Origin: Microgenomates group bacterium Gr01-1014_7
Lineage (GTDB): Bacteria; Patescibacteriota; Microgenomatia; Daviesbacterales; UBA10151
NCBI GenBank assembly: GCA_007376405.1
Contig: VMGD01000001.1
Location: 2,891 to 66,890, forward strand
Reading direction: 5' to 3'
Length of the DNA: 64,000 nt
Shown: piece after piece, positions 17,656 through 43,707 of the stretch
Layout: the number at the start of each line of letters is the position of its first letter
How positions within the stretch are numbered: the first letter of the stretch is position 1
The notes under the pieces: generated by a model
Seen by the model: only the letters and a program-made list of their open reading frames with translations
Database searches by the model: none
Told to the model about the DNA's origin: nothing
Translations under genes and position numbers: made by a program

Positions 17656-19878
17656 ATGTGTTATTATTTGGTTTCGAAGGGACTAACAACAAAGATTACA
17701 TCTTACGATTATAAAATGACTTTTAAACGATTTTTTAAAGGTGAGCTCCTTTCACTTATTGTGATAATTTTAGTCTGTCTTCTTATTGTTTCGATTTGGT
17801 TTAAAGACGGCCTTATGTTTGCAGGAGGAGAGGATGTTATTTCTTTTTATAATCCCGACAGAGTATTTGATCTATTTTTTTATACTTGGAATCCACAAGA
17901 CAGTGGTACTCCCCAAATACAACTTTTAGCAAGAGTTCCTTACTTTTATGTAATAGAATTATTTTACAATTGGGGTATCCCAGGTTTGCTATTACAGGCA
18001 TTAACTTTTTTCTTGTTAATGTTGAGCGGAACATTAGCGATTTATTTCTTATTAAAAGAAACTCTTTCAAAAGATTTACCAGAAAATATGAAGAGTTCTG
18101 TACCAATTATAGGAAGTTTATTTTATCTTTTGAATCCTTATGCAATGTCTCAAATTTGGCTTAGAGGACTTTATAACCAATTTTTTTCTTTTGCCTTAGT
18201 GCCCATTTTCTTGTTATTTTTTGTACTTGGTTTAAATAGAAAAAAAATTGTATATGGACTAATAGCAGTCATATGCAGTTTTATTTTCTCTACAGGGTAT
18301 ACACATCCTGCTACTGTTATTACAACATGGGCAATTCCAATAATTTATCTAATTTTTTATTTCTTCAAATTTAAAAATAATGTTAAAAATATAACTTTTG
18401 GTTTGTTTTATATAATTACAATATTAATTCTTTGGTTTTTGGTGAATGCCTTTTGGATTTATCCGCTTATTGAGGTGGGGAAACAAGTATTTAGTTCCGC
18501 TCTAGATACATCTTTAACTAACAATATAGGGACCCTCCAGGGAGTAAGTAAAGATACTCCTATATTTACAGTGCTGAGGCTTTTACATAATGGATATTTT
18601 TTTAGAGGTTTATATTATGGAGACATTTATCTTAGTTTCCCTTTTATGCTTATAAGCTGGTTAATTCCCGCAGTTGCACTTTTTTCTTTTTCATTTTTTA
18701 AAAAAATGAGGTACTTTAAGTTTTATTTTTTTTCTTTGTTAATAGGTTTATTTGTAAGTTCTGGAGATAATCCCCCCTTAGGATGGCTTCTTATAGTTAT
18801 TCTTCAGTTAGTTCCATTGCTACAAGTATTTAGAAACCCATACGAGAAATTCGGTATCAATTTTTTAATAGCATATATACCCTTTTTTACAATAGGGCTT
18901 GTGATTGTATCTAACTGGTTTAAAGAAAAACTAAACTCTTCAAAGATTGCTAAGCTAATCCAATATTTTATAATAATTCTAATATGTGGAATTTTCGTTT
19001 GGCCAATGTGGACCGGCAAATTTGCGGTAAAACCCTATGTAAACCCTTGGATTAAAGTCCCTAGCTATTATAAATTAGCAGATAATTGGTTAATGGAACA
19101 GAATGGAGATTTTCAAATCTTTCAGTTACCCCTTACTGCGGGAGACGGTATCAGATATACATGGAGGAATCCTTTCCAAGGCCTAGAACCAAGTCATTAT
19201 TTTTTTCAAAAGCCTTCAATTAGAACAGGATATTTTTTTAATAATAGTTATTATGCTCCCATAGGCGAGCAATTCGTTAATTTACGAGAAGGAGAGAAAA
19301 TAAAATATGTTACTAACAATAGAGAAGTTTTGGATAAAAATAAAATAATTGAAGGCCTATCTTTTTTAAATATTCGATATATTATTTTGCATAATGATGT
19401 TGATTATAAATTTAGCTCATCGCCATCACCTGATCAAATTAGAGAATATCTTAATAAACAGGATAAAATAAAATTTGTAAAAAAATTTGGAGAGTTAGAA
19501 GTTTATGAAATTGAGACATCCAAAAATTTAAGTGTAGTTTATTCTCCGGATGCTGAAATTGAGACTTCAAAGAAAAATCCTACTTTGTATAAAATATATG
19601 TTAAAAATGCTAAAGAAGAAATTAACCTATATTTTCTTCAAACATTTAACCCAGGATGGGAATTATCCTTAGATAACCAAGTGGTTACTAAACACGAAAA
19701 AGTGTTTTCCTATGCTAACGGTTGGAAAATTAATAAGTTAGGAAATTATACACTCACTTTATCATATAAACCTCAACAGTTTGTTTATTTAGGATTTAAA
19801 ATTTCTCTTATTAGTTTGATTATAGTATTAATAGTAATAATTATTATTCCCATATGGAAAAAAGTAAAAAATATATGA
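17656..19878 (+). CDS. Large polytopic membrane protein, member 1 of a six-paralog uncharacterised GT-C-like family
   Basis: About 12 hydrophobic segments, an acidic loop motif after TM1 (GGEDVISFY), and a ~250-aa C-terminal soluble domain followed by a terminal TM. The start is ambiguous. The ATG at 17656 sits only 1 nt after a GGAGG, so the Met at 17716 (MTFKRFF) may be the real start. Confidence 0.5.
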   Translation: MCYYLVSKGLTTKITSYDYKMTFKRFFKGELLSLIVIILVCLLIVSIWFKDGLMFAGGEDVISFYNPDRVFDLFFYTWNPQDSGTPQIQLLARVPYFYVIELFYNWGIPGLLLQALTFFLLMLSGTLAIYFLLKETLSKDLPENMKSSVPIIGSLFYLLNPYAMSQIWLRGLYNQFFSFALVPIFLLFFVLGLNRKKIVYGLIAVICSFIFSTGYTHPATVITTWAIPIIYLIFYFFKFKNNVKNITFGLFYIITILILWFLVNAFWIYPLIEVGKQVFSSALDTSLTNNIGTLQGVSKDTPIFTVLRLLHNGYFFRGLYYGDIYLSFPFMLISWLIPAVALFSFSFFKKMRYFKFYFFSLLIGLFVSSGDNPPLGWLLIVILQLVPLLQVFRNPYEKFGINFLIAYIPFFTIGLVIVSNWFKEKLNSSKIAKLIQYFIIILICGIFVWPMWTGKFAVKPYVNPWIKVPSYYKLADNWLMEQNGDFQIFQLPLTAGDGIRYTWRNPFQGLEPSHYFFQKPSIRTGYFFNNSYYAPIGEQFVNLREGEKIKYVTNNREVLDKNKIIEGLSFLNIRYIILHNDVDYKFSSSPSPDQIREYLNKQDKIKFVKKFGELEVYEIETSKNLSVVYSPDAEIETSKKNPTLYKIYVKNAKEEINLYFLQTFNPGWELSLDNQVVTKHEKVFSYANGWKINKLGNYTLTLSYKPQQFVYLGFKISLISLIIVLIVIIIIPIWKKVKNI

Positions 19879-20810
19879 AAAAAGAAAAAAAATTAGTCTC
19901 TGTAGTAATTGTAACAAGAAACAGAAAAAAGGATTTAATTGAGTGTTTAGACTCATATATTAAATCATCATATAAAAATACAGAAATTATAATTTTGGAT
20001 AATGCATCCATAACTCCCGTTTCATCATGGTTACCTAAGAAGTACAAAGGAATAGAAATTATAACTACTGTCAAAAATATTGGTGCAGCTGAGGGTAGAA
20101 ATAAAGGATTTAGTAAATCTAGCGGTTACTATATTGTATTTAGCGATGATGATGCAGTAGCTGATGCCTTGATGGTAGAGAAATTAGTCTCAGTATTTGA
20201 GAATCATAAAAATGTCGGAATAGTTCAACCATTAATATATGAAAAGAATAAGAAAAAATTATTACAAGGTGCTGGTCATAATATTGATCTAACAACTGGC
20301 AGAATTAGTGCTTGGGGTGTTAGAGAAAAGGATATAGGGCAATATGATGGGCTTAGAGAAATACCGATGGTTGGATGTGCTTGGATGGTAAGAAGAGATG
20401 TTTTTGAAAAAGTTAAAGGTTTTGATAAAGATTACTTTATCCCGTATGAAGATTCTGATTTCTCTTTTAGAGTTAGTAAGGCTGGTTTTAAGGTATACTG
20501 TTATTCGGATGCTAAAACTTGGCACAGAGGTCTTAAAGATACATTTATTCACCCATGGATTGAGTGGTTGGGTATTACTTCTTCAGATAGAGCGTATAGA
20601 ATTGCAAGGAATAAGATGATTTTTATTCGCAAGCACTCATCTAACCATCAAAAAATTATTTTCTTCTTTTTTTTATTACCGCTTTATACATTTATTCACT
20701 CATTAATAATTATGGCATCAGCTCGATTTGATATTTTGTACAAGTATTGGCTAGGAGTTTTATCAGGTATTTGGTATAGTTTAATGTATTCTTTTAAAAA
20801 GTTTACATAA
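19854..20810 (+). CDS. GT2-family glycosyltransferase with C-terminal membrane anchor
   Basis: VSVVIVTRNRKKDL...IIILDNAS...FSDDDAVAD (a DxD-type block) and C-terminal hydrophobic helices. Confidence 0.75.
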   Translation: MEKSKKYMKKEKKLVSVVIVTRNRKKDLIECLDSYIKSSYKNTEIIILDNASITPVSSWLPKKYKGIEIITTVKNIGAAEGRNKGFSKSSGYYIVFSDDDAVADALMVEKLVSVFENHKNVGIVQPLIYEKNKKKLLQGAGHNIDLTTGRISAWGVREKDIGQYDGLREIPMVGCAWMVRRDVFEKVKGFDKDYFIPYEDSDFSFRVSKAGFKVYCYSDAKTWHRGLKDTFIHPWIEWLGITSSDRAYRIARNKMIFIRKHSSNHQKIIFFFFLLPLYTFIHSLIIMASARFDILYKYWLGVLSGIWYSLMYSFKKFT

Positions 20811-20831
20811 TGACTCCTTTTTGTGGATAGT

Positions 20832-21659: not shown

Positions 21660-21661
21660 TA

Positions 21662-23972: not shown

Positions 23973-23973
23973 C

Positions 23974-24360
23974 TTAAAATTTAAGCCTTACTGTGTCTCT
24001 CTCGTATTTCTCCTGTTCCCTTGGCTCGGAAGTAATTGCCAAAAAAACAGTATCCTCTAAAAATTCCATGCTATGGGCAATCATCTTACGAGAAAGTACT
24101 AAATCTCCAGGTTTTAAAATAACTGACTGCTTCTCGGAATTTTTTTTGCTCATATCTTTTTCAGAATATCTAAATTTACCACTTAAGCAGTAAACGTAAT
24201 GTGAATCTTTTTTATGATAGTGATTGGCACGAGAACTGCCTGCTTTACTAGTAATTAAAAGTACTGCTCTAAAATGAATACTGTCATCGTCAACTAAGCG
24301 GGAGATAAACCCTCTTTCGTCCGTGAACTCAGGTTTTATATGTGTGACTTTAATAGACAT
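23974..24360 (-). CDS. FdtA/WxcM-like cupin: NDP-4-keto-6-deoxy-sugar 3,4-ketoisomerase
   Basis: A 128-aa cupin. FTDERGFISRL and RANHYHKKDSHYVYCLSGK resemble the FdtA blocks (GDERGSL; RGNHAHK). Confidence 0.55.
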   Translation of the reverse strand: MSIKVTHIKPEFTDERGFISRLVDDDSIHFRAVLLITSKAGSSRANHYHKKDSHYVYCLSGKFRYSEKDMSKKNSEKQSVILKPGDLVLSRKMIAHSMEFLEDTVFLAITSEPREQEKYERDTVRLKF

Positions 24361-24380
24361 AGTTAAAAGTATCAGTTAGT

Positions 24381-26360
24381 CTATAAGGGATTTGTATTGT
24401 TGTCAAGCTCCTTATGTAATCTCTCAAGCACCTCTTTGGTAATATCCACTACTTGATCTCCTTTTAAAGTGAAGGCAAAAAAGTCATCTTGGTAAAAAGT
24501 GTGTGTACCAGAATAGAGAACACTATCTTTAGTGCAAAAAGCAGTTATTGAATTGAAAGTTACTTGATTATTAGAGTATTTATAAATTTTTTTAAATTCA
24601 TTAAAGCCATTATCTACCCAGTCCAAACAACCGTTTACCTTTCTATCAGGTTTATTATAATATTTGTGTAAAAATACCCATAATGTAATCCTACCGTAGT
24701 TTAGTGCCGTGTACCAATATCTATCTTCAACTGTTACCAGTCTTGGTTCATAGTATAATATGAGATTGTCTCTTTTTGAAGCAGGTGTTGTGTTAAAAAA
24801 TACTTCTTGAATATGTTTTTGCACAGCCATATCCTCACCTAGTGATTTAATCATTTTAAAGTATTGGTTCCCTTTGTAAGAAAAAACCACTAGATAGATA
24901 AGAAATATCACTAGAAAAAAGGCATATAGACCTGCTGTACGTTTACTTGTTTGAATTCTTTTAAATATCAGAATTAAAATTGAGGAAATAAATATGCTAA
25001 CACCAATTGCAGGAACTGTTAAATATCTGTGTACCGGACCTTCATATCCAAAATGCTTACCAATTGAAAGCCAAGTGGCACAAATAAAGGATAGGGAAAG
25101 AAGGGGTGATATAAAAACTGCTAGAAGTATTTTATCCTTCATACCGGTTTTGTACCACTCAAAACCAGTTGCCAAAGCTATAGCTATAATATAAGCTCCT
25201 AGAATACCCGGGAGCGTAGCAAAATCTAGAGTTCCGTTATAAGGTAACGCTAGCTCCTTCGGAATATAATAATAATGGGTGTCAAAAATGTAAATTAAAA
25301 TTTGAAAGAAAGTACTTAGAATAAATGTAGTTATAATGAAACGTTTTGGTTTTTGGGAAATAACAGGGGCAAGTACAAAGGTAAAAATTAAGAATAAAGG
25401 TATGATGCCGCGACCAAAAAGATTACCAAAATAACTCTCCAGAGTCCTTAAATTCCAAATACCAAAAAAACGGACAGAATCAGGATTGATCAGAGTAAAA
25501 CCTAAACCTGCCAATGGATTTATCAAAAGCTGCCAGTTACCTGCAAAAAGATCCTTAAGTAAATTGTTATAAGAATTTCCTCTTGCAAAAGTACCCGGAT
25601 CAACCAAACGAAACAGAAGATAAAAAGGTACAAGATAAATAATTATTCTTAAGATTGTTGTCTTAAATTTTGATATACCCTTAATAGCTATTATAATCTC
25701 CATTATAACCAGTAAAATAAAAGTTGGTATCATTCTCATGGGTGCTGAAAAAATAGCCACATACAAAAGGATAAAAGAGAGCACCAAAAGTTTAATATTC
25801 TTCTGATCTCTAATTAGGAAATAGTAAGAAATTATAAATAGATTTAAAAAAATAACTCCCCAATATTCTGTCCCGGTGACATTGATTTGCAAAGATCCAT
25901 TTGCTGAAGGAAGGATAGCATATATTAATGTGGCCAAGGTGGCTAAAAATTTGCGTTTTGTTAAAACCCACAGAGTGGGATATATGCTTAATGCAGCCAA
26001 GATTTTCCATATAAAATTTAACTTATGTGTAAGTTCCCAGTTATAAGGAAATAGTTCATCTAAGGTACCTGCATACAATATCTGATGGGCCCAACCTAGA
26101 CCAGTGTGAACCCAAGTTTTGTAAACTCTAACTAAATAATTGTTGTCAACAATTCGATTATCGGCTTTATAATCTCTTAGATATGGAATATCTTCATTGA
26201 CTAGTCCATAGCCAAAAAAATCTTGTGCAAAAATATAATTTAAAAACAATACAGCTAAAACTAAAGATATACCAAAACTAGCTTTGATATGTTTTGATGA
26301 TTGTGTCTGCATTTTTTTCAGAATATCTCCTTTCTGCAAATTTTCGACAATTTTTTGCAA
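24381..26360 (-). CDS. Large polytopic membrane protein, member 2 of the GT-C-like family
   Basis: More than 12 TM segments. NEDIPYL acidic loop motif after TM1, a conserved GPVHRYLTVPAIG block late in the membrane domain, and a ~200-aa C-terminal soluble domain. The probable start is the internal Met near 26312. Confidence 0.5.
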   Translation of the reverse strand: MQKIVENLQKGDILKKMQTQSSKHIKASFGISLVLAVLFLNYIFAQDFFGYGLVNEDIPYLRDYKADNRIVDNNYLVRVYKTWVHTGLGWAHQILYAGTLDELFPYNWELTHKLNFIWKILAALSIYPTLWVLTKRKFLATLATLIYAILPSANGSLQINVTGTEYWGVIFLNLFIISYYFLIRDQKNIKLLVLSFILLYVAIFSAPMRMIPTFILLVIMEIIIAIKGISKFKTTILRIIIYLVPFYLLFRLVDPGTFARGNSYNNLLKDLFAGNWQLLINPLAGLGFTLINPDSVRFFGIWNLRTLESYFGNLFGRGIIPLFLIFTFVLAPVISQKPKRFIITTFILSTFFQILIYIFDTHYYYIPKELALPYNGTLDFATLPGILGAYIIAIALATGFEWYKTGMKDKILLAVFISPLLSLSFICATWLSIGKHFGYEGPVHRYLTVPAIGVSIFISSILILIFKRIQTSKRTAGLYAFFLVIFLIYLVVFSYKGNQYFKMIKSLGEDMAVQKHIQEVFFNTTPASKRDNLILYYEPRLVTVEDRYWYTALNYGRITLWVFLHKYYNKPDRKVNGCLDWVDNGFNEFKKIYKYSNNQVTFNSITAFCTKDSVLYSGTHTFYQDDFFAFTLKGDQVVDITKEVLERLHKELDNNTNPL

Positions 26361-27396
26361 GCTTTTTTAATTCATCCTTAGACTTATAAAAATATTCTAT
26401 AGTTCTCCTGATACTTTCCGGACTTATATCAATAATCTTCCCGACAGTTCCATCTAAAGCTTCAGGAATAGCACCTCTTCTAGCACCAATAATAGGTGTC
26501 TCACAAGCTAATGCTTCCAATATAACTCTTCCAAAACCTTCCTCAGAAACAGACGGAACAATTAATAAGTCTGCGCCACTATAATATATAGGTAGATTAT
26601 CCGAATCAATCCCTTCAATAAAATCCACATTCGACAATTTCAAAGTGGTTTCTTTTACCTTATCTTTCAAAGGTCCTGATCCAATAATCTTTAAGCTTAT
26701 ATTTTTATCCCAGCTCTTAACCGATTCGAGTAATTCCTTTATTCCTTTTTCTGGTACTAATCTTCCAACGAATAGAACAGTAAATTTTTCCTTCCAGCCT
26801 AGTTTATTTTTTGCTTCTTTCACTTTTTTAAACTTTTTTAAATCAATCCAATAAGTAAAGTTTTTAACTTTTATTTTAGCAGCCCCTAATGATTCAATTT
26901 CCCTTACTGCCTGTTTTGATAAACCCAAACAGTAATTGGCATTTTTAAATATAAAGCTCACAAAGTTTCTGTAAATCCCTTTTTTGGGAAAACTATATAT
27001 GCTATGCGTTGAAACAATAATCTTTTTTCCGAATATTTTTGCCCAAAATACACCTGCAAATCCTGCTACTAAGCCATTGGCATGGATTACCTCAGGGTTA
27101 GTAGCAATTATAACCAAAGGAGCAATAATAAATAGTCCAGGGAGCAAATAAAGAAATTCAAGTAATGGGTACTGTACCAATTTGTAAAACAAACCGAACA
27201 ACCAAGGTATTCGGATTATTGTTAATAAACCCATCTTTTCATAAACTTTTGAATAAACATTGGTAGTCAGCGGTTTGTAAGTAAGCACCCACACCCTCCA
27301 CTTTCTCTTTGTCAAGACATAAACTAAATCATTAAGATGGGTTTCTACTCCTCCTATATTAGGTTTAAAGTGAGCAGTCAGTAAAAGTATGTTCAA
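26278..27396 (-). CDS. GT4-family (retaining, GT-B) glycosyltransferase
   Basis: N-terminal HFKPNIGGVETH and a C-terminal EGFGRVILEALACETPIIGARRGAIPE (E-x7-E motif). Confidence 0.8.
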   Translation of the reverse strand: MNILLLTAHFKPNIGGVETHLNDLVYVLTKRKWRVWVLTYKPLTTNVYSKVYEKMGLLTIIRIPWLFGLFYKLVQYPLLEFLYLLPGLFIIAPLVIIATNPEVIHANGLVAGFAGVFWAKIFGKKIIVSTHSIYSFPKKGIYRNFVSFIFKNANYCLGLSKQAVREIESLGAAKIKVKNFTYWIDLKKFKKVKEAKNKLGWKEKFTVLFVGRLVPEKGIKELLESVKSWDKNISLKIIGSGPLKDKVKETTLKLSNVDFIEGIDSDNLPIYYSGADLLIVPSVSEEGFGRVILEALACETPIIGARRGAIPEALDGTVGKIIDISPESIRRTIEYFYKSKDELKKLAKNCRKFAERRYSEKNADTIIKTYQS

Positions 27397-28226
27397 AGTT
27401 TCCTTATCCTTCCTATAAAATATCCCAATCCACCCCCTATCAATTCTGCCGATAACATAATAAACATTCCTATTGATAATATGGGATGCATAATTATCTT
27501 TTTAGGATTTTTATAGAATACAGGACGCAAAAAATAGACAGTTTTAGGTCCAAACATGGGGATATTATGCTTACCTAAATACTTATAAGCATGAAGGGCG
27601 TAATAAAATTTTTTTGAAGCAACTGAAAATAGTGAGTCAATCCTTTCATAATGGTGAATTTCTGATTTTATTCTTCCTACCTTATACCCCATTTCCCTAA
27701 TAGTATCCGGTAAATCCCAATCTTCCGGGCCGGTAATAGTTTCATCGTAACCGCCAGCTTTAAAAAAAACCTCCCTTCTAAAAAGCCTTGCCGCATCTGT
27801 TAGCTCATCACCTTTTTCATTATAGAACGATCGCTCAAAAGCCTTTACCTTACCCCAATAGTTTGAAGCCAGTGACTGCTCAGGAATCACTATCTCACCA
27901 ATTTTCTTATCTGACTCTGCTAACTCCACACATTCTGAAACTAGTTCAGGAGTAAGTTCCATATCAGCATCCAAAATAAGTAAATATTTACCTTTTGCTA
28001 CTTTTGCACCAAAATTTCTCTGAGTGGATCTTTCAGGACCAACTGTATATACCTTTACATTCATTTTTCTGGCAACATCTAAAGTCTTATCAGTTGAATT
28101 ATTATCGACTAAAATAATTTCTTTATTCTTAAAGGTTTGAGTTTTTATAGATCGAATCAGTCTTCCTATAGCATCTTCTTCATTTTTTGTTGTTATAACA
28201 ACTGACACAAGTGGCCCTTTATCCAT
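27393..28226 (-). CDS. GT2-family glycosyltransferase with C-terminal TM helices (polyprenyl-phosphate sugar synthase-like)
   Basis: VSVVITTKNEEDAI...ILVDNNSTDKT...ILDADMEL, with a hydrophobic C-terminus. Confidence 0.75.
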   Translation of the reverse strand: MDKGPLVSVVITTKNEEDAIGRLIRSIKTQTFKNKEIILVDNNSTDKTLDVARKMNVKVYTVGPERSTQRNFGAKVAKGKYLLILDADMELTPELVSECVELAESDKKIGEIVIPEQSLASNYWGKVKAFERSFYNEKGDELTDAARLFRREVFFKAGGYDETITGPEDWDLPDTIREMGYKVGRIKSEIHHYERIDSLFSVASKKFYYALHAYKYLGKHNIPMFGPKTVYFLRPVFYKNPKKIIMHPILSIGMFIMLSAELIGGGLGYFIGRIRKL

Positions 28227-28260
28227 AATTTAAGATAAATACTACCACAAAATCGAGTGC

Positions 28261-28289
28261 TTGCATTAGCTATCCATACAGTGTATAAA
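28261..28289 (+). promoter_or_regulatory. Candidate sigma-70-type promoter (TTGCAT-N17-TATAAA) for the GT2 gene at 28301
   Basis: TTGCAT at 28261-28266 and TATAAA at 28284-28289, with the ATG 11 nt downstream and no Shine-Dalgarno, so the leader would be very short. Confidence 0.35.
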
Positions 28290-31641: not shown

Positions 31642-33411
31642 ATGCTGCTTAAATTATCGAAGAATTTCTTATTTATTTTTTCTATATTACTGATTAGTTT
31701 ATTTACTCTTTACCCAAGTTTTAATTTGGCATTATTTGGTGATGACTGGTTGGTGATCTATAGGTATGTCAGTGACGTTGGGTCTATTTCTGCAGGGTTT
31801 TCAAAACATTTGCACGAATACCTCTCTCCTTATGGCCCCACTCAAGTTTTTATGGGTATACTGGAACAACTCTACAATTATAATTCTACTTTTTACTATA
31901 TAACCTCATATTTGCTTAGACTTTTTGCTGCTTTTTCACTCTTCCCTATTACTTTTTATCTAACCAGAAATAAATTATCCGCTTTTTTTGCAGTTCTTTT
32001 TTTCAGTGTAACAACTACTGGTTTCGATACTACCAATTGGGTATTCAATATGACTTCTTATTTAGCCATCGGTTTTATTAGTCTCTTTCTATTTTTTTAT
32101 TTAAGATCTAAAGAGGAAGAAAGGACGATTTTTTTGGTACCTGCAATAATTCTTTTTTATCTCGCCTATATTACCTCTTCAATTAGAATGCATGCTACAT
32201 TACCTTTACTTATTCTGCTGGAAATTATCTGGAATTTCCAAGAAAGAAATCTCATTTTTGCTCGAAAATCTCTTGTAAGGCTCACGTTAGTAGTAGTAAC
32301 TATTTTATTCATTCGTTTTACTGGCGCTTCGTTTGGACAGCCTACCGAGGCCGCTGATAGGTTTAGGGAAGGTATTAGTACTGCCAAATTATTTCTTAAT
32401 CAAGGGCGATACGATTTCCTAGCATATCCATTGGCATCTTTTGGAAGTATATTTATTCCAGATGCTATTTTACCTTTTTCGGGCCAAGTTTCATCAATCA
32501 AAAATCTTATCATAAATATGGTGCTACCAATTTTACTGATTTTTGTTATAGTATCTAGATTTCTTATGAAATTAACCTATGATTTAAAGAGAGATTTCTT
32601 TGGCATTTTATTTGCTCTTACAATTGTCTGGACAATTATTGCAATCATTTTTTATAAAGGTAACATTTCCACCTTCTCTTCAGCTGCTTATAACTCACTT
32701 TTATTAATAGGTGGTTATATATTTATCCTTGGTCTGATGTTGATAATTAAAAACATAAAGCTAAAATCTACTTCAACTTTACTTATTCTGTCGCTTGCAT
32801 GGATATTACTATCTTATTTGTATGCGTGGTGGTGGAAACCTGAATCCTTATATTTAACAACTCACAGATATCTTATTGTTGGAGCGGCTGGAGCGGCTAT
32901 ATTTTTATCTGGTCTTATAAGTTTAGGAAAAAGCAAGCGTAATCAGATTACGATCTTCATGATGTTTGTTCCCTTATTAATAATACATATTTATTCAACC
33001 AGAATGTATGAGAATCAATTAATATCTTCCGGACATGGTCAAGAAATTTTCAATAAAATATGGGCATCTATTCCTTATATACCGGAAATTAGCAAAAAAG
33101 AAAAAGCATCTATTTTCTATTTCGAAGGAGACGGGACTAATGGCAGTATCCTACACGATAGTATCACCTTTGGTTTTTCACCTCACATGGCTCTGCTTTA
33201 CAATATTACTGAAAGTAATAAAATACCACAAGCGATGGATTCTTGGGAAGATGTGGTGTCTGCTGTTAATGATGGAAAAATTTTAAAAAAGTATGGTATT
33301 GCAAAAGACCCAATTCCCATAGATAATGTATACGCTTTTAAACTTGAAGGAAAAGATCATCTTATAAACCTCACCACTCAAGCACGGGAGAAACTATTGA
33401 AGGTACCATGA
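31642..33411 (+). CDS. Large polytopic membrane protein, member 4 of the GT-C-like family (tandem paralog of 33971-35767)
   Basis: N-terminus LYPSFNLALFGDDWLVIYRY, AWWWKPESLYLTTHRYLIV, and C-terminal GDGTNGSILHDSITFGFSPHM...DPIPIDNVYAFKLEG...TQAREKL. Confidence 0.5.
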   Translation: MLLKLSKNFLFIFSILLISLFTLYPSFNLALFGDDWLVIYRYVSDVGSISAGFSKHLHEYLSPYGPTQVFMGILEQLYNYNSTFYYITSYLLRLFAAFSLFPITFYLTRNKLSAFFAVLFFSVTTTGFDTTNWVFNMTSYLAIGFISLFLFFYLRSKEEERTIFLVPAIILFYLAYITSSIRMHATLPLLILLEIIWNFQERNLIFARKSLVRLTLVVVTILFIRFTGASFGQPTEAADRFREGISTAKLFLNQGRYDFLAYPLASFGSIFIPDAILPFSGQVSSIKNLIINMVLPILLIFVIVSRFLMKLTYDLKRDFFGILFALTIVWTIIAIIFYKGNISTFSSAAYNSLLLIGGYIFILGLMLIIKNIKLKSTSTLLILSLAWILLSYLYAWWWKPESLYLTTHRYLIVGAAGAAIFLSGLISLGKSKRNQITIFMMFVPLLIIHIYSTRMYENQLISSGHGQEIFNKIWASIPYIPEISKKEKASIFYFEGDGTNGSILHDSITFGFSPHMALLYNITESNKIPQAMDSWEDVVSAVNDGKILKKYGIAKDPIPIDNVYAFKLEGKDHLINLTTQAREKLLKVP

Positions 33412-33974
33412 AGAAATTTAATATATCAGTTATTACCACTCCGTATCGAGCTAAGTTAATAATTTCAATTTATAAGAGTTGGTTTAAAAGAAACGGGAAA
33501 GCGCTAGATGTGGGTTGTGGAACAGGTATAGTTGCCAATATATTAAAGAAAGAATTAGGGCTTAAGATTACTGGATGTGATGTTAAAAACTATTTAATTC
33601 ATAATATTCCATTCGTTAAGGTAAAAGGCGATAAACTTCCATTTCCTAAACATAGTTTTGATGTTGTTCTATTTAATGATGTCTTACATCACATTGATAA
33701 ACCAAAACAGGAGCAGGTAATAAGTGAGGCTCTTAGAGTTGGAAAAAATGTTTTTATTTTTGAATACGAAGCTGGTACAGGTGGCAAAATATTAGACATT
33801 GTACTTAACAAATTCCACTATGATGATCTTAATACTCCCTTAGCATTTAGGAGTGCTAATGAATGGAAGCAATTATTCAAAAAACTATCTGCCAACTATG
33901 ATTATATTAAACTGAAAAAACCCTTTTGGTATCCATTCACACATATAGCATTTAGAGTAAGTAAAAATAAATGA
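33408..33974 (+). CDS. Class I SAM-dependent methyltransferase
   Basis: ALDVGCGTGIVANIL (motif I), DVVLFNDVLHH. It sits between the two tandem membrane paralogs with ATGA overlaps on both sides. Confidence 0.75.
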   Translation: MKKFNISVITTPYRAKLIISIYKSWFKRNGKALDVGCGTGIVANILKKELGLKITGCDVKNYLIHNIPFVKVKGDKLPFPKHSFDVVLFNDVLHHIDKPKQEQVISEALRVGKNVFIFEYEAGTGGKILDIVLNKFHYDDLNTPLAFRSANEWKQLFKKLSANYDYIKLKKPFWYPFTHIAFRVSKNK

Positions 33975-35767
33975 GGTCGATAATATCAATTCTTCTTATT
34001 GTATTATTAAGTTTGTTTACATTTTTCCCTTCTTTTAATTTAGCTCTTTTTGGAGACGACTGGCTGGCTTTCTATAGATATAGTAAAATATTAGGACCAT
34101 TTGCCCAGGATAATTCGTCGACTCATCTCAAGTACTTCTTAACTCCATACGGCGCACAAGACATCCTTATGGGCTTGCTACAAAAAATATACGGTTATCA
34201 ATCATCACTTTATTATCTCACTTCATATATATTCAGAATTATCGCTGCTGTTTCTTTTTATCCACTTACTTTATATCTAACCAAAAGTAAATTGGCAGCC
34301 TTTTTTGCAATACTTTTTTTCTCAATTACCGCCATAGGCATTGATACAACCAACTGGGTCTTTAATATGCCCTCCTATATTACCATAGCATTGTTTAATT
34401 TATTCTTATATTTTTTTCTTAAATCCCGTGAGGATAAAAAACCTAAGTTACTGCTTATTATTAGCGGCTTACTTTACTATTTAGCATATGTTATTACCCC
34501 TATTAGAATGCATGGGTCATTGCTACTTATTTTTTTATTAGAGACATTCTGGTTTTTTCAAAAAAGAGATAAAAAGACATTAAAAAAAATTATCTTAAGA
34601 CTTACAATAATAATTTTAATATTCTTAATTATAAGATACACCGGACATTCACAAGGACCTCCCGAAGAAATAAGTCAACGACTTAATATAGGAATAACTA
34701 CGGATTTAACTATGCTTAAGTATGGAAGATTTGACTTTATTTTTTATCCTATTGTTATGTTTGGCGCTATGTTTCTTCCGGATTTACGGAGTTTCCTCCT
34801 TGGTCCAGATCAATTATTAGGATATAGTATACCAACATTTTCGTATGTGAATCTTATTTTTATCTATCTTACTCCGGCATTTTTGGGCTTCTTGTTACTA
34901 AATTTTGTTTTAATGAAGAATATTTCTTTATCAAGTAATTTTTTTTGGAGAAATGGAATAGCCGGGTTGTTATGGATAATAATTACCTTATTAATTCATC
35001 AGTTTAACGCAACCATTTTTTTTGATGAGAAGTATATCCTTTCTTTAACGCTTGGAGGCTTTGCAATAATTATCATACTTTCCTTAATCTTAAAATTTTT
35101 TAAAGAGATAAATATCACTACGTCATTATTTTTATCTTTTTCTTGGTCAATATTGGCTTTTTTCTTTGCATGGTGGTGGGTACCTAATACTATATTTCCT
35201 ACTCCCTATAGATATTTCATAGTTTCCGCTGTTGGGATTTCAATCTTTTTGGCAACTATTATTGGTTTAGGAAAAAATATAAAGCAGCGGATCAATATTT
35301 TTTCGTTTTTGCTGATTTTAGTTATTATTCATGTAATATCAACTCATTCCTATTTGAGTCAATTAAAAGATATCCGTTCACAAGAACTTTATAATAGGGT
35401 TTGGTCTCAAATGCCATATGTTCCCGCAGTTGGCAAAACATCTCGTCCGATTATTTTTTATTTTGAAGGAGATGGCACCGTGGCTAATGCAAACATCTTG
35501 TATAGTGTGATAGCCTTTGGTTTTCCACCGCACATGTACTTACTTTATAATCTTACTTCTGATGCTCAAATTCCAGCAATAATGGACACTTGGGATGAGG
35601 TTATATCTGCTGTCAAAGATGGAAAATCTTTTAAAAGGCATATCGGTACAGCCATAGATCCAATACCTATTGATAATGTATTTGCTTATCATCTTGAGGG
35701 CGCAGACAGGCTTATTAATATAACGGATTTAGCCAGAGAAAAATTAAGGCAAACGCTTAATAATTAG
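33971..35767 (+). CDS. Large polytopic membrane protein, member 5 of the GT-C-like family
   Basis: FFPSFNLALFGDDWLAFYRY, AWWWVPNTIFPTPYRYFIV, and C-terminal GDGTVANANILYSVIAFGFPPHM...DPIPIDNVFAYHLEG...LAREKL. Confidence 0.5.
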   Translation: MRSIISILLIVLLSLFTFFPSFNLALFGDDWLAFYRYSKILGPFAQDNSSTHLKYFLTPYGAQDILMGLLQKIYGYQSSLYYLTSYIFRIIAAVSFYPLTLYLTKSKLAAFFAILFFSITAIGIDTTNWVFNMPSYITIALFNLFLYFFLKSREDKKPKLLLIISGLLYYLAYVITPIRMHGSLLLIFLLETFWFFQKRDKKTLKKIILRLTIIILIFLIIRYTGHSQGPPEEISQRLNIGITTDLTMLKYGRFDFIFYPIVMFGAMFLPDLRSFLLGPDQLLGYSIPTFSYVNLIFIYLTPAFLGFLLLNFVLMKNISLSSNFFWRNGIAGLLWIIITLLIHQFNATIFFDEKYILSLTLGGFAIIIILSLILKFFKEINITTSLFLSFSWSILAFFFAWWWVPNTIFPTPYRYFIVSAVGISIFLATIIGLGKNIKQRINIFSFLLILVIIHVISTHSYLSQLKDIRSQELYNRVWSQMPYVPAVGKTSRPIIFYFEGDGTVANANILYSVIAFGFPPHMYLLYNLTSDAQIPAIMDTWDEVISAVKDGKSFKRHIGTAIDPIPIDNVFAYHLEGADRLINITDLAREKLRQTLNN

Positions 35768-37090: not shown

Positions 37091-38009
37091 CTTTCAAAGA
37101 AGTCTTTTGCTTAAAACCTAGCTTTTTTAGTTTTGTTATATCCGGACAACGACGTAAAGTACTGCCTTTAGTCAATTTTCCGGGAACTATCTTAATCTTT
37201 ACATTAAAACATGCACCAATTTCTTCGGCTAGCTGCGAAATTGTAATTTCTTGCATTGTGCCAATATTATAAATTTCTAAATGTTTGCCTTTATCTAAAA
37301 CTGTTAATAAACCATCTGTGAAATCATCAATATACATATAAGCTCTAGTTTCTTTTCCAGAACCCTGTATTGGTAACCTAATAACGCCTTTACCCTTTTT
37401 ATCTCCAATTATTTTTTTTATTCGTAAAGTTAGTTGTGGTATCACATGTTCAAATCTCATATTCGGACCATAGACATTATGAGGTCTAACAATCATTACC
37501 TTATTAAAAAATTTACGTCCATAATTTATGGCCAAAATTTCTGAAATAATTTTTCCTGCTCCATAGGAGTATCTGGAATTAAATGGATCAGGAATAACCA
37601 TGGCAACTGTTTCTGGTGTAGGAATAATATTAGGAGTTTGATAGACTTCAGAACTGGATACTAAGATAAAATTTTTTACTTTATGTTTAATAGAACCATC
37701 TAATATATTAATAATACCCTTCACACCGACTTCTAAAATTAATTCAGGCTTTGTATAAAAATATTCTGTTCCATTTATGTATGCTAGATGGATTATGCAA
37801 TCTATCTTTTGACAAGCTTTCTCAACTACCTCTTTATCCCTAATATCTCCTTTTATAAATTCAAACTTGCCTTCAATATCTTTAAGTCTTGCTATCTCAC
37901 CCCTAGAGTCATTATCTAGGATTCTGACCCTATGTCCTTGTTTGATAAGAGATTTGGTAAGACTGCTTCCAATGAATCCTGTTCCTCCCGTAACGAGATA
38001 GTGTTTCAT
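37026..38009 (-). CDS. NAD-dependent nucleotide-sugar epimerase/dehydratase (SDR)
   Basis: YLVTGGTGFIGSSL, VSSSEVYQ and YSYGAGKIISE (the YxxxK catalytic pair). Confidence 0.75.
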   Translation of the reverse strand: MKHYLVTGGTGFIGSSLTKSLIKQGHRVRILDNDSRGEIARLKDIEGKFEFIKGDIRDKEVVEKACQKIDCIIHLAYINGTEYFYTKPELILEVGVKGIINILDGSIKHKVKNFILVSSSEVYQTPNIIPTPETVAMVIPDPFNSRYSYGAGKIISEILAINYGRKFFNKVMIVRPHNVYGPNMRFEHVIPQLTLRIKKIIGDKKGKGVIRLPIQGSGKETRAYMYIDDFTDGLLTVLDKGKHLEIYNIGTMQEITISQLAEEIGACFNVKIKIVPGKLTKGSTLRRCPDITKLKKLGFKQKTSLKDGLQKTIEWYNAFAHLQFKND

Positions 38010-38713
38010 AATCCTCTAAAACCAACACTTAAAATAGTTTTTAGAAATAAAAAACCATCCTTAAAAGGAATTAATTTTGAGTTACCAACTACACGAGTCT
38101 TATAATCAATGGGGACACAAATAATTTTATAATTTTTTTGAGCTGCTTTAATAATCACTTCTGCCTCATATCCATAATGATTTATTTGCATATTAATATC
38201 CTCCAAAGCTTTCTTCTTAAATGCCTTAAATCCTGCTGGCATATCTGTAATCCTTTGCCCACTGAAACATGAAGTAAGAAGTGAAAGAGCATAAATGCCG
38301 ATACGTCTCAGTCTGGTCACAGAACCTTTTTCAGGATTACCACCCTTTTCATACCGACTACCCAGAGCAACATCATAACCGCTAAGAAGAGGTTCCACAA
38401 GTTTAGGTATATCATAGGGCATAAACTGATAATCAGCATCCATTTGGACAATTATGTCACCTTTGGCAGAAGGAAGGGCAAGTCGGAGAGCTGCTCCTTT
38501 TCCCAGCCATTTACCGGTATGAATAACCTTAGCTCCTGCTTTTTTTGCAACCTCTCCTGTATGATCTGTCGTCTTACTATCAAGCACAACTAAAACTTCC
38601 AGCTTATATTTTTTGATCTTTATGGTTTCTCTAATAGTTCTTTCTATATTTTTTTCTTCATTCAAAGCAGCAATCATGACAGATACAAATGGGTGTTCAC
38701 TTCTCTTTTTCAT
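38006..38713 (-). CDS. GT2-family polyprenyl-phosphate glycosyltransferase-like
   Basis: VSVMIAALNEEKNIERTI...VVLDSKTTDHT...VQMDADYQF. Confidence 0.75.
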   Translation of the reverse strand: MKKRSEHPFVSVMIAALNEEKNIERTIRETIKIKKYKLEVLVVLDSKTTDHTGEVAKKAGAKVIHTGKWLGKGAALRLALPSAKGDIIVQMDADYQFMPYDIPKLVEPLLSGYDVALGSRYEKGGNPEKGSVTRLRRIGIYALSLLTSCFSGQRITDMPAGFKAFKKKALEDINMQINHYGYEAEVIIKAAQKNYKIICVPIDYKTRVVGNSKLIPFKDGFLFLKTILSVGFRGL

Positions 38714-38741
38714 ATGCTTAAATACATGTGTACTATACTAT

Positions 38742-38760
38742 ATAATCATTATATGATTAT
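38742..38760. promoter_or_regulatory. Perfect inverted repeat ATAATCAT-N3-ATGATTAT overlapping a TATAAT-like box upstream of the GT2 gene at 38713
   Basis: 8-bp arms, 3-bp spacer, about 30-45 bp upstream of the minus-strand start codon in the only sizeable intergenic gap (127 bp) in this stretch. Read on the minus strand, the centre contains TATAAT. Confidence 0.3.
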
Positions 38761-38840
38761 TATCAAATCTCTGTACTGGATTTTCTTTGTTACAAACTGA
38801 TAATCCTGCTTAGTTAACCAGGTAGGTATTCTCTTATCTA

Positions 38841-40112: not shown

Positions 40113-40199
40113 ATCATAATCATTTGCTATTTTGTAGGTACTTTATGATGTTATTGCTAATCTTCTGAAATAATCATAGACTAATAAAGATCAAAACTT

Positions 40200-40934
40200 A
40201 TGTCCAAAAGAATCAACAAAATATATCTTAGCGTTATTGTACCCGTCTATAATGAGGGTACTAATATAACAAAATTTATTTATGGTCTAGAGAGCTCAGT
40301 TAATATAAAACACGAAGTATTAATCATATATGATTTCGATGAGGATAATACTATGCCTGTTGTAAAAAGACTTAAAAGAAAGTTTAAAAATATCAAACTG
40401 ATAAAAAATATTTTTGAATCTGGCTTAATTAATGCATGCAAAACCGGATTTAAAAAAGCTAACGGTAATTTTCTGGTAGTAATGTCGGGAGATCTTGCTG
40501 ATGAACCAAAGACTATCAATAAAATGTACGAATTAGCAAAAAAAGGGTATGACATAGTTTGTGCAACTCGTTATTCCAAAGGCGGAAAACAGCTAGGTGG
40601 AAGTTTAGTAAAAACTTATCTCTCAAAATTTGCAGGACTAACCACACCCATACTGCTAGGTATTCCTACTTCAGATTTAACCAACGGTTTTAAAATGTAT
40701 AACCGAAAAATTTTTAAAAAAATAAAAATTGAGTCACAGGGAGGTTGGGAGTTTACTATGGAAATTTTAATCAAAGCTCATTTTTTAGGTTTCAAGATTA
40801 CAGAAACTCCCTCAACCTGGTATGAAAGAACTTTAGGCAAATCTAAATTTAAGCTTTTAAAGTGGTTACCAAAATATATTTACTGGTACTTTTGGGGTAT
40901 TTCTCAAAGATCGAAATTACTCTTGAATAGATAA
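40200..40934 (+). CDS. GT2-family polyprenyl-phosphate glycosyltransferase-like (DPM1/GtrB type)
   Basis: LSVIVPVYNEGTNI...VMSGDLADEP...TNGFK. Confidence 0.75.
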   Translation: MSKRINKIYLSVIVPVYNEGTNITKFIYGLESSVNIKHEVLIIYDFDEDNTMPVVKRLKRKFKNIKLIKNIFESGLINACKTGFKKANGNFLVVMSGDLADEPKTINKMYELAKKGYDIVCATRYSKGGKQLGGSLVKTYLSKFAGLTTPILLGIPTSDLTNGFKMYNRKIFKKIKIESQGGWEFTMEILIKAHFLGFKITETPSTWYERTLGKSKFKLLKWLPKYIYWYFWGISQRSKLLLNR

Positions 40935-41773: not shown

Positions 41774-41784
41774 GATAAAAAAAC

Positions 41785-43707
41785 TTAGTTAGATATACCT
41801 ATTTCTTGTAAAATTTCACTTTTTATATCATATACATTCCTATTTTTTAACCTAAAAGCATAAAATCTCTTGGGTTTATAAAATACATTTTTATATAAAA
41901 CACCCTTTTCTCCATTTCGCAAAGTGACATAACTTTTGAGCTTACCCAGACAATTAACATTGGCTCCGGTACAATAAACATTTGTTTCAGAACCGAGATC
42001 CATGTTTCTTATATACTCCGGAGTAATCCCATCCAGCGGCATACTTCTACCCCTAAATCTAATCCAGGTAGGAAAACCTGCTATTATTGTTGTTTCAAGA
42101 AAATATCCATTTTCACGATCCTCTTCATCAAAATAAAATAAGGTGGGTTCTTTCAAATCAAAATTGCCCATATAAGATAATAGTTCACTTTTTATTCTTT
42201 TTTGCTGCTCTCCGTTCATACCTGAATCATTTAACTCTTGATTAAAATACTTACCTACTATATAAAAATTGAATTGAATTATGGGTATAATTATTAATAA
42301 AATGAGCCAAGAAAAATTATTTAAGAATTTTGTATTTTTAATTTTTTCATAAAAAAGTGTAATAAGTGCGGCGATAAAAAAGGAAGAGCCAATCGCCGGA
42401 ATTGCCAAATACCTGTGAACTCCTGCTACAATTAAAGTGTAATCTGAAGGGAGCCAAGTTACAAAAATCATAAGAAAGGCTATAGCCGGGCCTATGAAAA
42501 GATATAAAAGATAACCTCCTTTTCTATCATTTAATAGCCATTCAATTAGCAATGATAGAGTCAAAGACATGATAAATACCCCTATCAGCGCGGGCTTCAG
42601 AAACATGGTGTCAAAAGATAGTCTTAAAGCTTCAACTTTGAAGAGTTGGTGACTTGCTAGTATGTAAACTATGGCACCCAATGCGATAGCCAAAAAAGAG
42701 TTTATTAATATAAATCTTAGCCGTTTTTTTAAGATAAGTATGCTTAAAAAGACTGTAAAAATGAGGAAAGTCGAAAATGGCCCTAAAAAGAATCCTAGAT
42801 ATCCGCCAAATCCATTTAAAGCATATTTGTCAGAACCTATCAGTCCCCAATATTCTCTTGGAAAGAATAGACTTGCCAGGGAAATTGGAGGATTTAGAGC
42901 GAGCTGCCAATATCCCTCTGCGATCTTTTGGAAAATAGTTTTGGTATTACCAAAAAAACTTGATATCCCACCAAATTGGCTAGGTCCGCCAAAATGAACC
43001 AGAAAATATAACAATAGTAAAGGAGAAAAAAATACAATTTGTCTTATAACGGAAGATTTTACAATTGATCTAGAAAATTTTTGACTTAGCATCCAAAAAA
43101 ACTCCCCCAAAAATATTAAAGGTATTAAAGGATACATCCTTTCAGTGGCAATAAATAACGTCAAAGGGAATAAGAAAGCACCAACAATTAACCATATCAC
43201 TCCACTTTTATTATTCTTTACTATTAAGATATAGTATGTGGCAAATATATTCATCAATGTTATCCCTATATAGTAACCACTAACCTGTGCTGAATACAAA
43301 GGTGCTACTGCAGAATAGGCAACAGCATAAAGAATTGTGGCTAAAGCTGCCAGTAATCTTTTGCCGGTAAAAGCTAAAACCAAAGGGAATAAAGTGATGG
43401 CAGATAAAAATTTAAAAAAATGGTTGGCTTTATGTATGTTTATGAAATTAAAACCATCAATTGGAAAAAAATGCTCTAAAATTCCCATATAATAAACTCC
43501 GTATGTGTAAACTCCCACGCCTTTCCAAACTTGATATATTTTGGCAAGAGGTGCCTCACCCAGTATTTTATATTGATACAAATATCCCCAATCCACATCT
43601 GCAAAACCATATCTTAAGTGAGGAGCAAGAAGTTTAGATTCGAGAAAAAAGATCAGAGGAATAATAACAATAAAGATTAGAAGTGAGCGGGGAATCCTAT
43701 GTATCAT
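41785..43707 (-). CDS. Large polytopic membrane protein, member 6 of the GT-C-like family
   Basis: ADVDWGYLY acidic loop motif, VAGVHRYLAIPAIG (nearly identical to member 2), and a C-terminal soluble domain. Confidence 0.5.
   Translation of the reverse strand: MIHRIPRSLLIFIVIIPLIFFLESKLLAPHLRYGFADVDWGYLYQYKILGEAPLAKIYQVWKGVGVYTYGVYYMGILEHFFPIDGFNFINIHKANHFFKFLSAITLFPLVLAFTGKRLLAALATILYAVAYSAVAPLYSAQVSGYYIGITLMNIFATYYILIVKNNKSGVIWLIVGAFLFPLTLFIATERMYPLIPLIFLGEFFWMLSQKFSRSIVKSSVIRQIVFFSPLLLLYFLVHFGGPSQFGGISSFFGNTKTIFQKIAEGYWQLALNPPISLASLFFPREYWGLIGSDKYALNGFGGYLGFFLGPFSTFLIFTVFLSILILKKRLRFILINSFLAIALGAIVYILASHQLFKVEALRLSFDTMFLKPALIGVFIMSLTLSLLIEWLLNDRKGGYLLYLFIGPAIAFLMIFVTWLPSDYTLIVAGVHRYLAIPAIGSSFFIAALITLFYEKIKNTKFLNNFSWLILLIIIPIIQFNFYIVGKYFNQELNDSGMNGEQQKRIKSELLSYMGNFDLKEPTLFYFDEEDRENGYFLETTIIAGFPTWIRFRGRSMPLDGITPEYIRNMDLGSETNVYCTGANVNCLGKLKSYVTLRNGEKGVLYKNVFYKPKRFYAFRLKNRNVYDIKSEILQEIGISN

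Follow-up and report, generated by a model that had tools for sequence, protein, structure and literature searches.

Five of the large polytopic membrane proteins encoded in the 64,000-nucleotide stretch analysed here (the window), labelled B to F below, are likely to be extracytoplasmically acting glycosyltransferases with a GT-C fold, and they belong to a family that is covered by no public model. We regard this family as a candidate new GT-C family; the type of enzyme, its topology and its genetic pairing with GT2 glycosyltransferases are all known. The first-pass annotation had read the six proteins listed here as GT-C-like extracytoplasmic transferases, and that reading is supported by the fold and topology tests reported below, the function itself being predicted. 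That said, its set of six paralogues is actually one of five plus one, as protein A falls outside the family by BLASTP, by profile comparison and by the family HMM.

17656-19878, + strand: A, 740 aa; by Pfam a GT-C of the AftD type, with a single TM anchor at the C-terminus; outside the B-F family
24381-26360, - strand: B, 659 aa; divergent B/F branch; family HMM E 2e-116
29007-30662, + strand: C, 551 aa; family member; family HMM E 2e-99; 27% identity to D
31642-33411, + strand: D, 589 aa; family reference; NCBI 'hypothetical protein G01um10147_35'
33971-35767, + strand: E, 598 aa (P0092); near paralogue of D (45% identity); operon D-methyltransferase-E
41785-43707, - strand: F, 640 aa; B/F branch member

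Five paralogues and a separate AftD-type protein

The positions first given for the six open reading frames are exact in every case, with encoded lengths of 551-740 aa. B and C begin, in the longest reading frame, with TTG codons; these starts are provisional, that of B overlapping the upstream GT4 gene by 83 nt. BLASTP joins B to F through D/E (45% identity, 1e-155), B/F (1e-44) and C/D (2e-32), with E/F (1e-14) and B/D (6e-13) as weaker pairs, and a search of the window with the family HMM returns exactly five members. A shows nothing significant against B-F by BLASTP (E >= 0.1), zero matches to 267 family proteins and a probability of 0.7% against the family profile in hhalign. Judged by sequence, B, C, D, E and F form a single family, and A is separate from it, with no sequence relationship. 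In particular, A passes the Pfam model PF11847 (GT-C_AftD) with 36.7 bits against a cutoff of 26 over residues 105-636, a threshold that none of B-F reaches; a direct match between A and the AftD sequence in the PDB is absent. By Pfam, A is an ordinary, recognisable AftD-type GT-C, and it probably acts in the same pathway as B-F. The family assignment had been called unclear, which holds for B-F, where Pfam and NCBIfam scans give no matches and the sole match of the family profile to PDB sequences is spurious (E 0.65), and does not hold for A.

The family comprises approximately 1,270 clusters at 50% identity, annotated merely as 'hypothetical protein'. All informatively named members come from Microgenomates-lineage CPR, which covers the less divergent two thirds of the family; for ten divergent members, a look-up by exact-sequence cluster gave neither a name nor an organism. 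As found so far from sequence records, the family appears confined to the Microgenomates (CPR), where Daviesbacteria-like genomes carry 4-7 copies per approximately 20 kb. The description of the family as diversifying is apt only as regards copy number and sequence divergence. In a literature search we met with no relevant work on the family or on expansions of GT-C enzymes in CPR, Microgenomates or Daviesbacteria. The source organism is an uncultured MAG, and tRNA and Rfam scans of the whole window were empty.

Predicted fold, topology and putative active site

The top 16 Foldseek matches are all GT-C proteins, and this ranking decides for a GT-C-like fold over a transporter fold: MFS, APC and MATE structures reach a probability of at most 0.23, with TM-scores of approximately 0.1, and were rejected. 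As expected of the GT-C(A) class, the modelled N-terminal module, made up of TM1-7 and the two juxtamembrane helices of the first outer loop, can be superposed on GT-C enzymes of known structure. The membrane domain is predicted to consist of 13 TM helices with the N-terminus inside, a count that combines model-based helices with positive-inside statistics. Namely, Lys and Arg make up 24.1% of the predicted cytoplasmic loops versus 6.4% of the outer loops across 71 family members, and the 13 helices alternate consistently across the membrane. A Kyte-Doolittle count of 8-10 helices, which is crude and under-calls, was replaced by the model-based helices. The same analysis of 71 members upholds, as a prediction, the proposal that both the acidic motif and the C-terminal domain face the outside of the cell. 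What is more, this domain, credited earlier to three members, is common to all five, B and F included. It measures approximately 125-150 aa in the family, and conservation at G511 is at least 90%; its (F/Y)-A-(F/Y)-x-L motif and terminal helix can also be aligned in B and F, where insertions occur.

31741-31746, + strand: D34-D35 of D (GDDW); acidic pair, putatively catalytic, at the N-terminal end of the first loop helix (33-45)
32185-32187, + strand: R182 of D (P-I-R-M-H); outer TM5/6 loop; conserved in 71/71; putative phosphate ligand
32866-32871, + strand: R409-Y410 of D, within the HRYL block; where TM12 starts on the outer side; putative phosphate ligands
33037-33408, + strand: C-terminal alpha/beta domain of D (aa 466-589); predicted extracytoplasmic

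Every acidic motif quoted by the first-pass annotation is found, namely GGEDV at residue 57 of A, NEDIPY at 55 of B, GDEW at 48 of C, GDDW at 33 of D and at 28 of E, and ADVDW at 36 of F. The late HRY(L/F) block ascribed to all six is YRYF in E and HRYL in the other four family members, and A has no HRY block. Among 71 divergent members, Asp occupies the D34 column in 60 and the D35 column in 61 (approximately 85%), the variants of the motif being Asp-Asp, Asp-Glu or Asp-x-Asp; R409 is conserved in 70 and Y410 in all 71. Published GT-C(A) enzymes all have their catalytic Asp at the tip of juxtamembrane helix 1, and in AftB this Asp lies within a DD motif, with two Arg residues stabilising the leaving phosphate (PMC12041299). 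The models of D and F likewise have, judged by helix position, an acidic residue where the first juxtamembrane helix begins, D37-x-D39 of F opening the helix formed by residues 37-48. An acidic residue at the canonical position, together with practically invariant Arg, Arg and Tyr at the outer face at approximately 26% identity, argues for a conserved active site. For this reason, we hold it very improbable that B-F are inactive GT-C-fold scaffolds, lipid- or substrate-binding subunits like PIG-U/GAB1, or transferases of a group other than sugar; the GT2 fusions and synteny described below also point to glycosyl transfer.

Some of the top structural matches are oligosaccharyltransferases, so that a polyprenyl-diphosphate oligosaccharide is a conceivable donor. 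B-F would then be en-bloc transferases (oligosaccharyltransferase, ligase or polymerase-like) acting on oligosaccharides that are made by the GT4 and GT2 enzymes of the cluster and flipped by the Wzx-like protein. Against this stand several points, and we consider it a poor candidate. As the first-pass annotation had noted, the WWDYG-type motif of STT3, PglB and AglB (GT66) is absent (W[WY]D[YWF]G matches 0/6 proteins); there is no STT3 Pfam match in the six proteins or in 71 relatives, and the small alpha/beta C-terminal domain is unlike, and much smaller than, that of oligosaccharyltransferases. The annotated genes include no initiating phosphoglycosyltransferase, and the pairing or fusion of one family gene with one GT2 suggests that a monosaccharide is transferred. 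Oligosaccharyltransferases or ligases would also not usually occur as many paralogues in one genome.

Neighbouring genes and GT2 partners

The whole window is a sugar-nucleotide and glycosyltransferase island, and its dozen GT-Cs comprise the five B-F proteins, five of the PMT_2 type, one AftD-like and one PIG-V-like. The neighbours that bear on the function of B-F are the following.

19854-20810, + strand: GT2, 318 aa; GtrB-like architecture with a pair of hydrophobic helices at the C-terminus; overlapping the end of A
27393-28226, - strand: GT2, 277 aa; conserved partner type of the family
28295-28999, + strand: small GT2, 234 aa, PF00535; 8 nt upstream of C
33408-33974, + strand: SAM methyltransferase, 188 aa, PF08241; between D and E, overlapping both
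38006-38713, - strand: small GT2, 235 aa; leading candidate for a polyprenyl-phosphate hexose synthase
40200-40934, + strand: small GT2, 244 aa; PgfS/ArnC-like
51390-52727, - strand: Wzx-like (Polysacc_synt) flippase, PF13440 and PF01943; sole flippase candidate in the window

Each of the six genes had been described as adjoining a GtrB-type GT2 or a methyltransferase, which is true only in rough terms: it is right for A (GT2 at 19854), for C (GT2 at 28295) and for D and E around their shared methyltransferase. B is flanked by GT4 and GT2 genes and by an FdtA-like gene, in an operon that reads GT2 (27393)-GT4-B-FdtA-like-C-methyltransferase-epimerase-methyltransferase, and F lies between RmlD and DUF5667 genes. 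Methyltransferases flank family genes at two further loci as well (L001, L029). Orthologues of the GT2 at 27393 (40-58% identity) directly adjoin a family gene in 10 loci from other Microgenomates lineages (L014-L017, L020-L023, L025 and L027), and this type is fused to a family protein in P0202. The GT2 at 19854 is 49-63% identical to the N-terminally fused GT2 domain of four further members (P0228, P0230, P0233 and P0236), giving five natural fusions, whose topology is compatible with the GT2 inside and the DD motif outside.

For both partner types the best PDB matches are 6p61, chondroitin synthase and GalT1, and the match to DPMS, at 3.6e-6, covers the N-terminus only; by sequence they resemble generic GT2s and may not produce a lipid-linked donor. 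The small GT2 at 38006 has the Pyrococcus Dol-P-Man synthase 5mlz as its best PDB relative (E 3.6e-22 across the entire catalytic domain), with ArnC and GtrB next in rank; its best NCBIfam matches are AglJ and Dol-P-hexose transferase. The one at 28295 is partially similar to ArnC, PgfS and PpgS, and has an 88%-identical orthologue upstream of a family gene in L002. All matches of these DPMS/ArnC/GtrB-like small GT2s (38006, 40200, 28295) lie under the NCBIfam cutoffs. A GtrA/SMR-type flippase was not found in the window: none of its small ORFs checked is a GtrA-like membrane ORF, and the intergenic gaps are too short to contain one.

Proposed function and relation to known systems

The most likely function of B-F is to pass sugars from a lipid phosphate to an acceptor at the cell surface. 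A GT2, either cytoplasmic or anchored in the membrane, would load a sugar onto polyprenyl phosphate; the foremost candidates for this step are the small DPMS-like GT2s of the cluster, and the part played by the conserved partner types is less clear. The lipid-linked sugar would then be flipped, with the Wzx-like protein as the sole candidate in the window. Outside the cell, the Arg and Tyr residues of the GT-C enzyme may hold the lipid phosphate, and the Asp of loop 1 may act as nucleophile or catalytic base in passing the sugar to the acceptor, which is most likely a glycan being extended at the cell surface. Each paralogue could handle a different sugar, often methylated or deoxy, or form a different linkage.

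One could also picture B-F as PMT-like protein O-glycosyltransferases moving sugars from polyprenyl phosphate to Ser or Thr of proteins that are secreted or displayed at the surface, for example pilins or S-layer proteins. A link to PMT_2 does exist, remote and transitive as it is: 3/71 members match Pfam PMT_2 (best 4.9e-7), the PMT_2 profile matches family member P0173 at 2e-6, and hhalign relates the family to PMT_2 with a probability of 39% and to the window's own PMT_2 paralogues at E 3e-4. B-F themselves, however, all miss the PMT and PMT_2 thresholds, with nothing against PF02366 (PMT) or PF13231 (PMT_2) even at E <= 1, and a MIR domain is absent from the six proteins and 71 relatives. 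Compared with the PMT_2 (PF13231)/ArnT-like enzymes, which we take to be of the CAZy GT83/GT39 type, B-F have approximately 10% identity to solved members and differ in the conserved set (DD, P-x-R-M-H, (H)RY) and in the C-terminal domain. No candidate acceptor protein is encoded beside B-F, and arrays of 4-7 paralogues amid sugar-modifying enzymes and cytoplasmic GT4/GT2 enzymes fit stepwise glycan building better. Consequently, we think protein O-glycosylation unlikely and keep to the transfer of sugars onto a surface glycan.

AftA, AftB, AftD and the Emb proteins are mycobacterial GT-C(A) arabinofuranosyltransferases that use decaprenyl-phosphate-arabinose donors. B-F differ from them in lacking sequence similarity to PF11847 or A and in having a much smaller periplasmic domain, and a DPPR-synthase-type donor pathway, as for those enzymes, was not seen. 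Multi-component glycosylation systems include GtrB/GtrA/Gtr*, ArnC/ArnEF/ArnT, CsbB/GtcA/YfhO, GacI/J/K/L and that of C. youngae GT136. The mechanism proposed here is not new, and the enzyme type is well precedented. Three- and four-component systems of GT2, flippase and GT-C have been described (PMC11127046; PMC10821137), Wzx-type flippases serve the GacK and WpsG systems (PMC10821137), and with GT136 a new GT-C family has already been established for a protein that lacked sequence similarity (PMC11127046). Here, too, a GT2 is genetically paired or fused with the GT-C, DPMS/ArnC/GtrB-like small GT2s lie in the cluster and, as for GacK and WpsG, a flippase candidate of the Wzx type is in the window. 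The differences are that no GtrA/SMR-type flippase was found, that the partner GT2 cannot be assigned clearly to the polyprenyl-phosphate-sugar synthases, and that arrays of 4-7 GT-C genes stand in place of a single decoration module.

CPR/Patescibacteria are ultra-small and mostly uncultured, their cell surface presumably mediates attachment to a host and, to our knowledge, almost nothing is known of their glycans. Rather tentatively, we suggest that Daviesbacteria-type CPR might use the dozen GT-Cs to build, largely outside the membrane, a surface glycan that would be complex, methylated and rich in deoxy sugars or heptose. The new, lineage-specific family would then be a self-contained 'load and transfer' module, coupled to a dedicated GT2 or fused with it from its origin, that was expanded by duplication to diversify the surface of an episymbiont. 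If true, mycobacterial arabinan synthesis and the ER-lumenal ALG steps would be functional analogues of such external assembly. The GT-C assignment itself offers a concrete annotation for a family of 'hypothetical proteins' and a candidate new CAZy GT family, as well as defined residues to mutate (D34/D35, R182, R409 and Y410), and the natural GT2-GT-C fusion is a possible tractable start for biochemistry.

Five paralogues and one AftD-type gene

The six open reading frames reported by the first-pass annotation are present in the window at precisely the positions given (GC approximately 32%; scans for tRNA and Rfam features found none), they encode proteins of 551-740 aa, and every motif quoted for them is found in their translations:

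A, 17656-19878 (+), AftD-type GT-C
B, 24381-26360 (-), B-F family member
C, 29007-30662 (+), B-F family member
D, 31642-33411 (+), B-F family member, taken as reference
E, 33971-35767 (+), B-F family member
F, 41785-43707 (-), B-F family member

D and E are identical to the 'hypothetical proteins' G01um10147_35 and G01um10147_37, respectively, both from the CPR/Patescibacteria MAG named Microgenomates group bacterium Gr01-1014_7. The longest-ORF starts of B and C are TTG codons (window 26278-26360 and 29007-29037), that of B overlapping the upstream GT4 by 83 nt, with in-frame ATG codons 16 (B) and 10 (C) codons downstream; the true N-termini of both may be shorter.

Paralogy of all six genes, as originally claimed, was not borne out: BLASTP, hhalign, phmmer and HMM agree on five paralogues, B-F, plus A. 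Namely, all-against-all BLASTP links D with E (45% identity, 1e-155), B with F (1e-44), C with D (2e-32), E with F (1e-14) and B with D (6e-13), and gives no significant match between A and B-F. Similarly, A aligns to the B-F family profile with an hhalign probability of 0.7%, has no phmmer match among 267 proteins of the family, and the family HMM, run over the window, retrieves exactly five members. Judged by its sequence, A is a GT-C of a recognised family, as it scores above the cutoff of Pfam GT-C_AftD (PF11847; 36.7 bits vs 26). The earlier view that these proteins are unassigned from sequence therefore holds for B-F, which have no Pfam or NCBIfam match with E <= 1, but not for A.

A family profile of 51 sequences likewise found no match among PDB sequences. 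The only sequence link we could detect leads to PMT_2, and it is remote and transitive: the family aligns with the window's five PMT_2 paralogues over TM2-TM6 (hhalign E 3e-4, probability 39%), Pfam PMT_2 is matched by 3 of 71 relatives (best 4.9e-7), and a profile built from the window's PMT_2 genes reaches one family member, P0173, at 2e-6. Among the same 71 relatives, TMEM260-like and PTPS_related were touched by single members, and STT3 and MIR gave no match; the WWDYG motif is absent from A-F. Within the GT-C superfamily, the family is best placed far out on the ArnT/PMT_2-like side, outside all public models.

Fold, topology and a proposed mechanism

The AlphaFold2 model of D, computed on a 51-sequence alignment, has a pLDDT of 90.7 and a pTM of 0.90. 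Its best 16 Foldseek matches are all GT-C, and matches to transporters reach a probability of 0.23 at most; we therefore reject a transporter fold, which had been named as the finding that would speak against a GT-C-like fold, and the latter is supported. B-F are a new family by sequence, though the kind of enzyme is well known, and the family is a candidate for a new CAZy family, with GT136 as precedent. Its assignment helps the annotation of CPR genomes.

From the helices of the D model, how hydrophobic they are and how the loops are charged, we derive 13 TM helices and a cytoplasmic N-terminus. Over 71 divergent members, which have a mean column identity of 26%, K+R make up 24.1% of the seven predicted cytoplasmic segments vs 6.4% of the five short outer loops, where R182 and R409 (D numbering, here and below) account for about two of the K/R per sequence. 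Because of this topology and charge bias, the acidic motif, R182, R409-Y410 and the C-terminal domain are placed outside the cell, so that the location foreseen for the motif and the domain is supported as a prediction. The Arg and Tyr residues are predicted to sit at the outer boundary of the membrane. The motif opens a helix both in D (D34-D35, helix 33-45) and in F (D37-x-D39, helix 37-48). According to the models, the C-terminal 125-150 aa or so form a small alpha/beta domain, which is homologous in all five paralogues rather than in the three members first proposed.

R182 and Y410 do not vary among the 71 aligned sequences; R409, G268, P273, G357 and G511 are at least 90% conserved, and G33, D34, D35, Y64, G127, Y140 and W396 at least 80%. 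Conservation is highest in TM2-4 and in the loop and helix of TM12, and lowest in the long outer loop 228-285, TM8-11 and TM13. GT-C(A) enzymes share a TM1-7 module with two juxtamembrane helices, the first carrying a catalytically essential Asp at its tip; in AftB, the catalytic Asp lies within a DD motif and the departing phosphate is stabilised by two Arg residues (PMC12041299). The acidic motif and the Arg/Tyr pattern of the B-F family match this published description, their spatial clustering being putative.

In the proposed mechanism, a sugar would be loaded on lipid phosphate at the cytoplasmic face and flipped, the flipped lipid-phosphate-linked sugar would be held via its phosphate by R182, R409 and Y410, and D34/D35 would act as base or nucleophile as the sugar is passed to an extracytoplasmic acceptor; each paralogue would have its own sugar or linkage. 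The donor may be a monophosphate or a diphosphate, and the acceptor a glycan or a protein. Documented three- and four-component systems (PMC11127046; PMC10821137) follow the same logic, and so does mycobacterial arabinan assembly (PMC12041299); to a specialist, such a mechanism would not be surprising.

Partner glycosyltransferases

In five family members, a GT2 is naturally fused to the N-terminal end. In four of the five, this GT2 is 49-63% identical to the window GT2 at 19854-20810, whose two hydrophobic helices at the C-terminal end give it a GtrB-like architecture; the fusion order, from cytoplasmic GT2 through two TM helices to TM1 of the GT-C, recreates the N-in topology. In the fifth, P0202, the GT2 is 42% identical to another window gene:

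27393-28226, GT2, first gene of the operon of B

Orthologues of the latter (40-58% identity) adjoin a family gene in 10 loci of other lineages (L014-L017, L020-L023, L025 and L027), mostly head-to-head. Both types look like generic GT2s, and they may either make the lipid-linked donor or act on another intermediate. The small GT2 at 38006-38713 resembles the Pyrococcus Dol-P-Man synthase over the whole catalytic domain (E 3.6e-22), followed by ArnC and GtrB. Similarity to ArnC/PgfS/PpgS, though weaker, is also seen in the GT2s at 40200 and 28295.

P0202 lies on a 367-kb contig (L029) unrelated to the window, in a window-like mix of methyltransferases, a GT4, dTDP-sugar enzymes and two flanking AftD-type genes, which parallel A:

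L029 3590-5665, AftD-type GT-C, 691 aa
L029 13248-16736, AftD-type GT-C, 1162 aa

Judging by these neighbours of P0202 and by A in the window, GT-Cs of the AftD-like type and of the B-F family seem to form a gene set that recurs.

Distribution and genomic setting

When 1.84 billion representatives were searched exhaustively with the profile, 1,269 clusters of the family scored E <= 1e-3, of which 654 stayed at or below 1e-10 and 331 at or below 1e-30. A scan of GTDB species, with patterns that represent the D-like branch, so that wider occurrence is possible, gave 26 loci. All 14 informative titles are of Microgenomates-lineage CPR (Daviesbacteria, Woesebacteria, Levyibacteriota, Amesbacteria, 'Microgenomates group', 'Patescibacteria group'); the other 12 bear the placeholder title 'uncultured Gammaproteobacteria ... 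binchicken'. Contigs so titled (L002, L003, L005, L008, L010, L013 and others, from GTDB-representative MAGs) carry the same gene arrays as the window and proteins up to 81% identical to its Microgenomates protein, and these titles seem to be placeholders or taxonomically mistaken. Daviesbacteria-like loci hold 4-7 family genes per approximately 20 kb (L013 has seven within 14.4 kb), and other lineages one or two.

The entire 64-kb window is a glycan island, with a heptose-nucleotide set, RmlC, RmlD, many epimerases/dehydratases, a UDP-Glc dehydrogenase, several SAM methyltransferases, a GT10, at least three GT4, about nine GT2 and a Wzx-like flippase. Together with A-F, the following genes further downstream make 12 GT-C-type membrane transferases in approximately 46 kb:

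Five PMT_2 (ArnT/PMT-like) GT-Cs and one PIG-V-like Mannosyl_trans2 GT-C:
48894-50621 (-)
52670-53830 (-)
55655-57298 (-)
57240-58850 (-)
59637-61217 (+)
61214-62869 (-)

Directly upstream of A, 13710-17619 encodes an NTP transferase, a GmhB-like HAD phosphatase, an epimerase, a GHMP kinase and a GmhA-like SIS isomerase. To all appearances this nucleotide-heptose set is complete, and it points to heptose as a constituent of the glycan. Two sugar C-methyltransferases (PF08421 + PF08484; 22725-24360 and 35768-37090), one adjoined by an FdtA-like cupin (23974-24360), imply C-methyl-branched deoxysugars, a chemistry that would be unusual for a CPR genome. Within 3083-11422 lie transketolase-like subunits (4041-5105, 5923-6873), each possibly paired with an unannotated upstream ORF (3083-4057, 5102-5926; presumed N-terminal subunits), and, within the sugar cluster, tandem aldo-keto reductases (9205-10311, 10313-11422); these genes may add two-carbon units to sugars, as branches or as chain extensions. 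ORFs 58873-59640 (+), 11423-12184 (+), 8777-9208 (+) and 30643-31491 (-) have no Pfam family or, at most, an EEP match that falls short of the threshold, the first (255 aa) lying between PMT_2 genes, at a position where a GT2 could be expected. Finally, the gene directly upstream of F and on its strand (43709-44236, -) encodes a DUF5667 protein that has a signal/anchor helix at the N-terminus.
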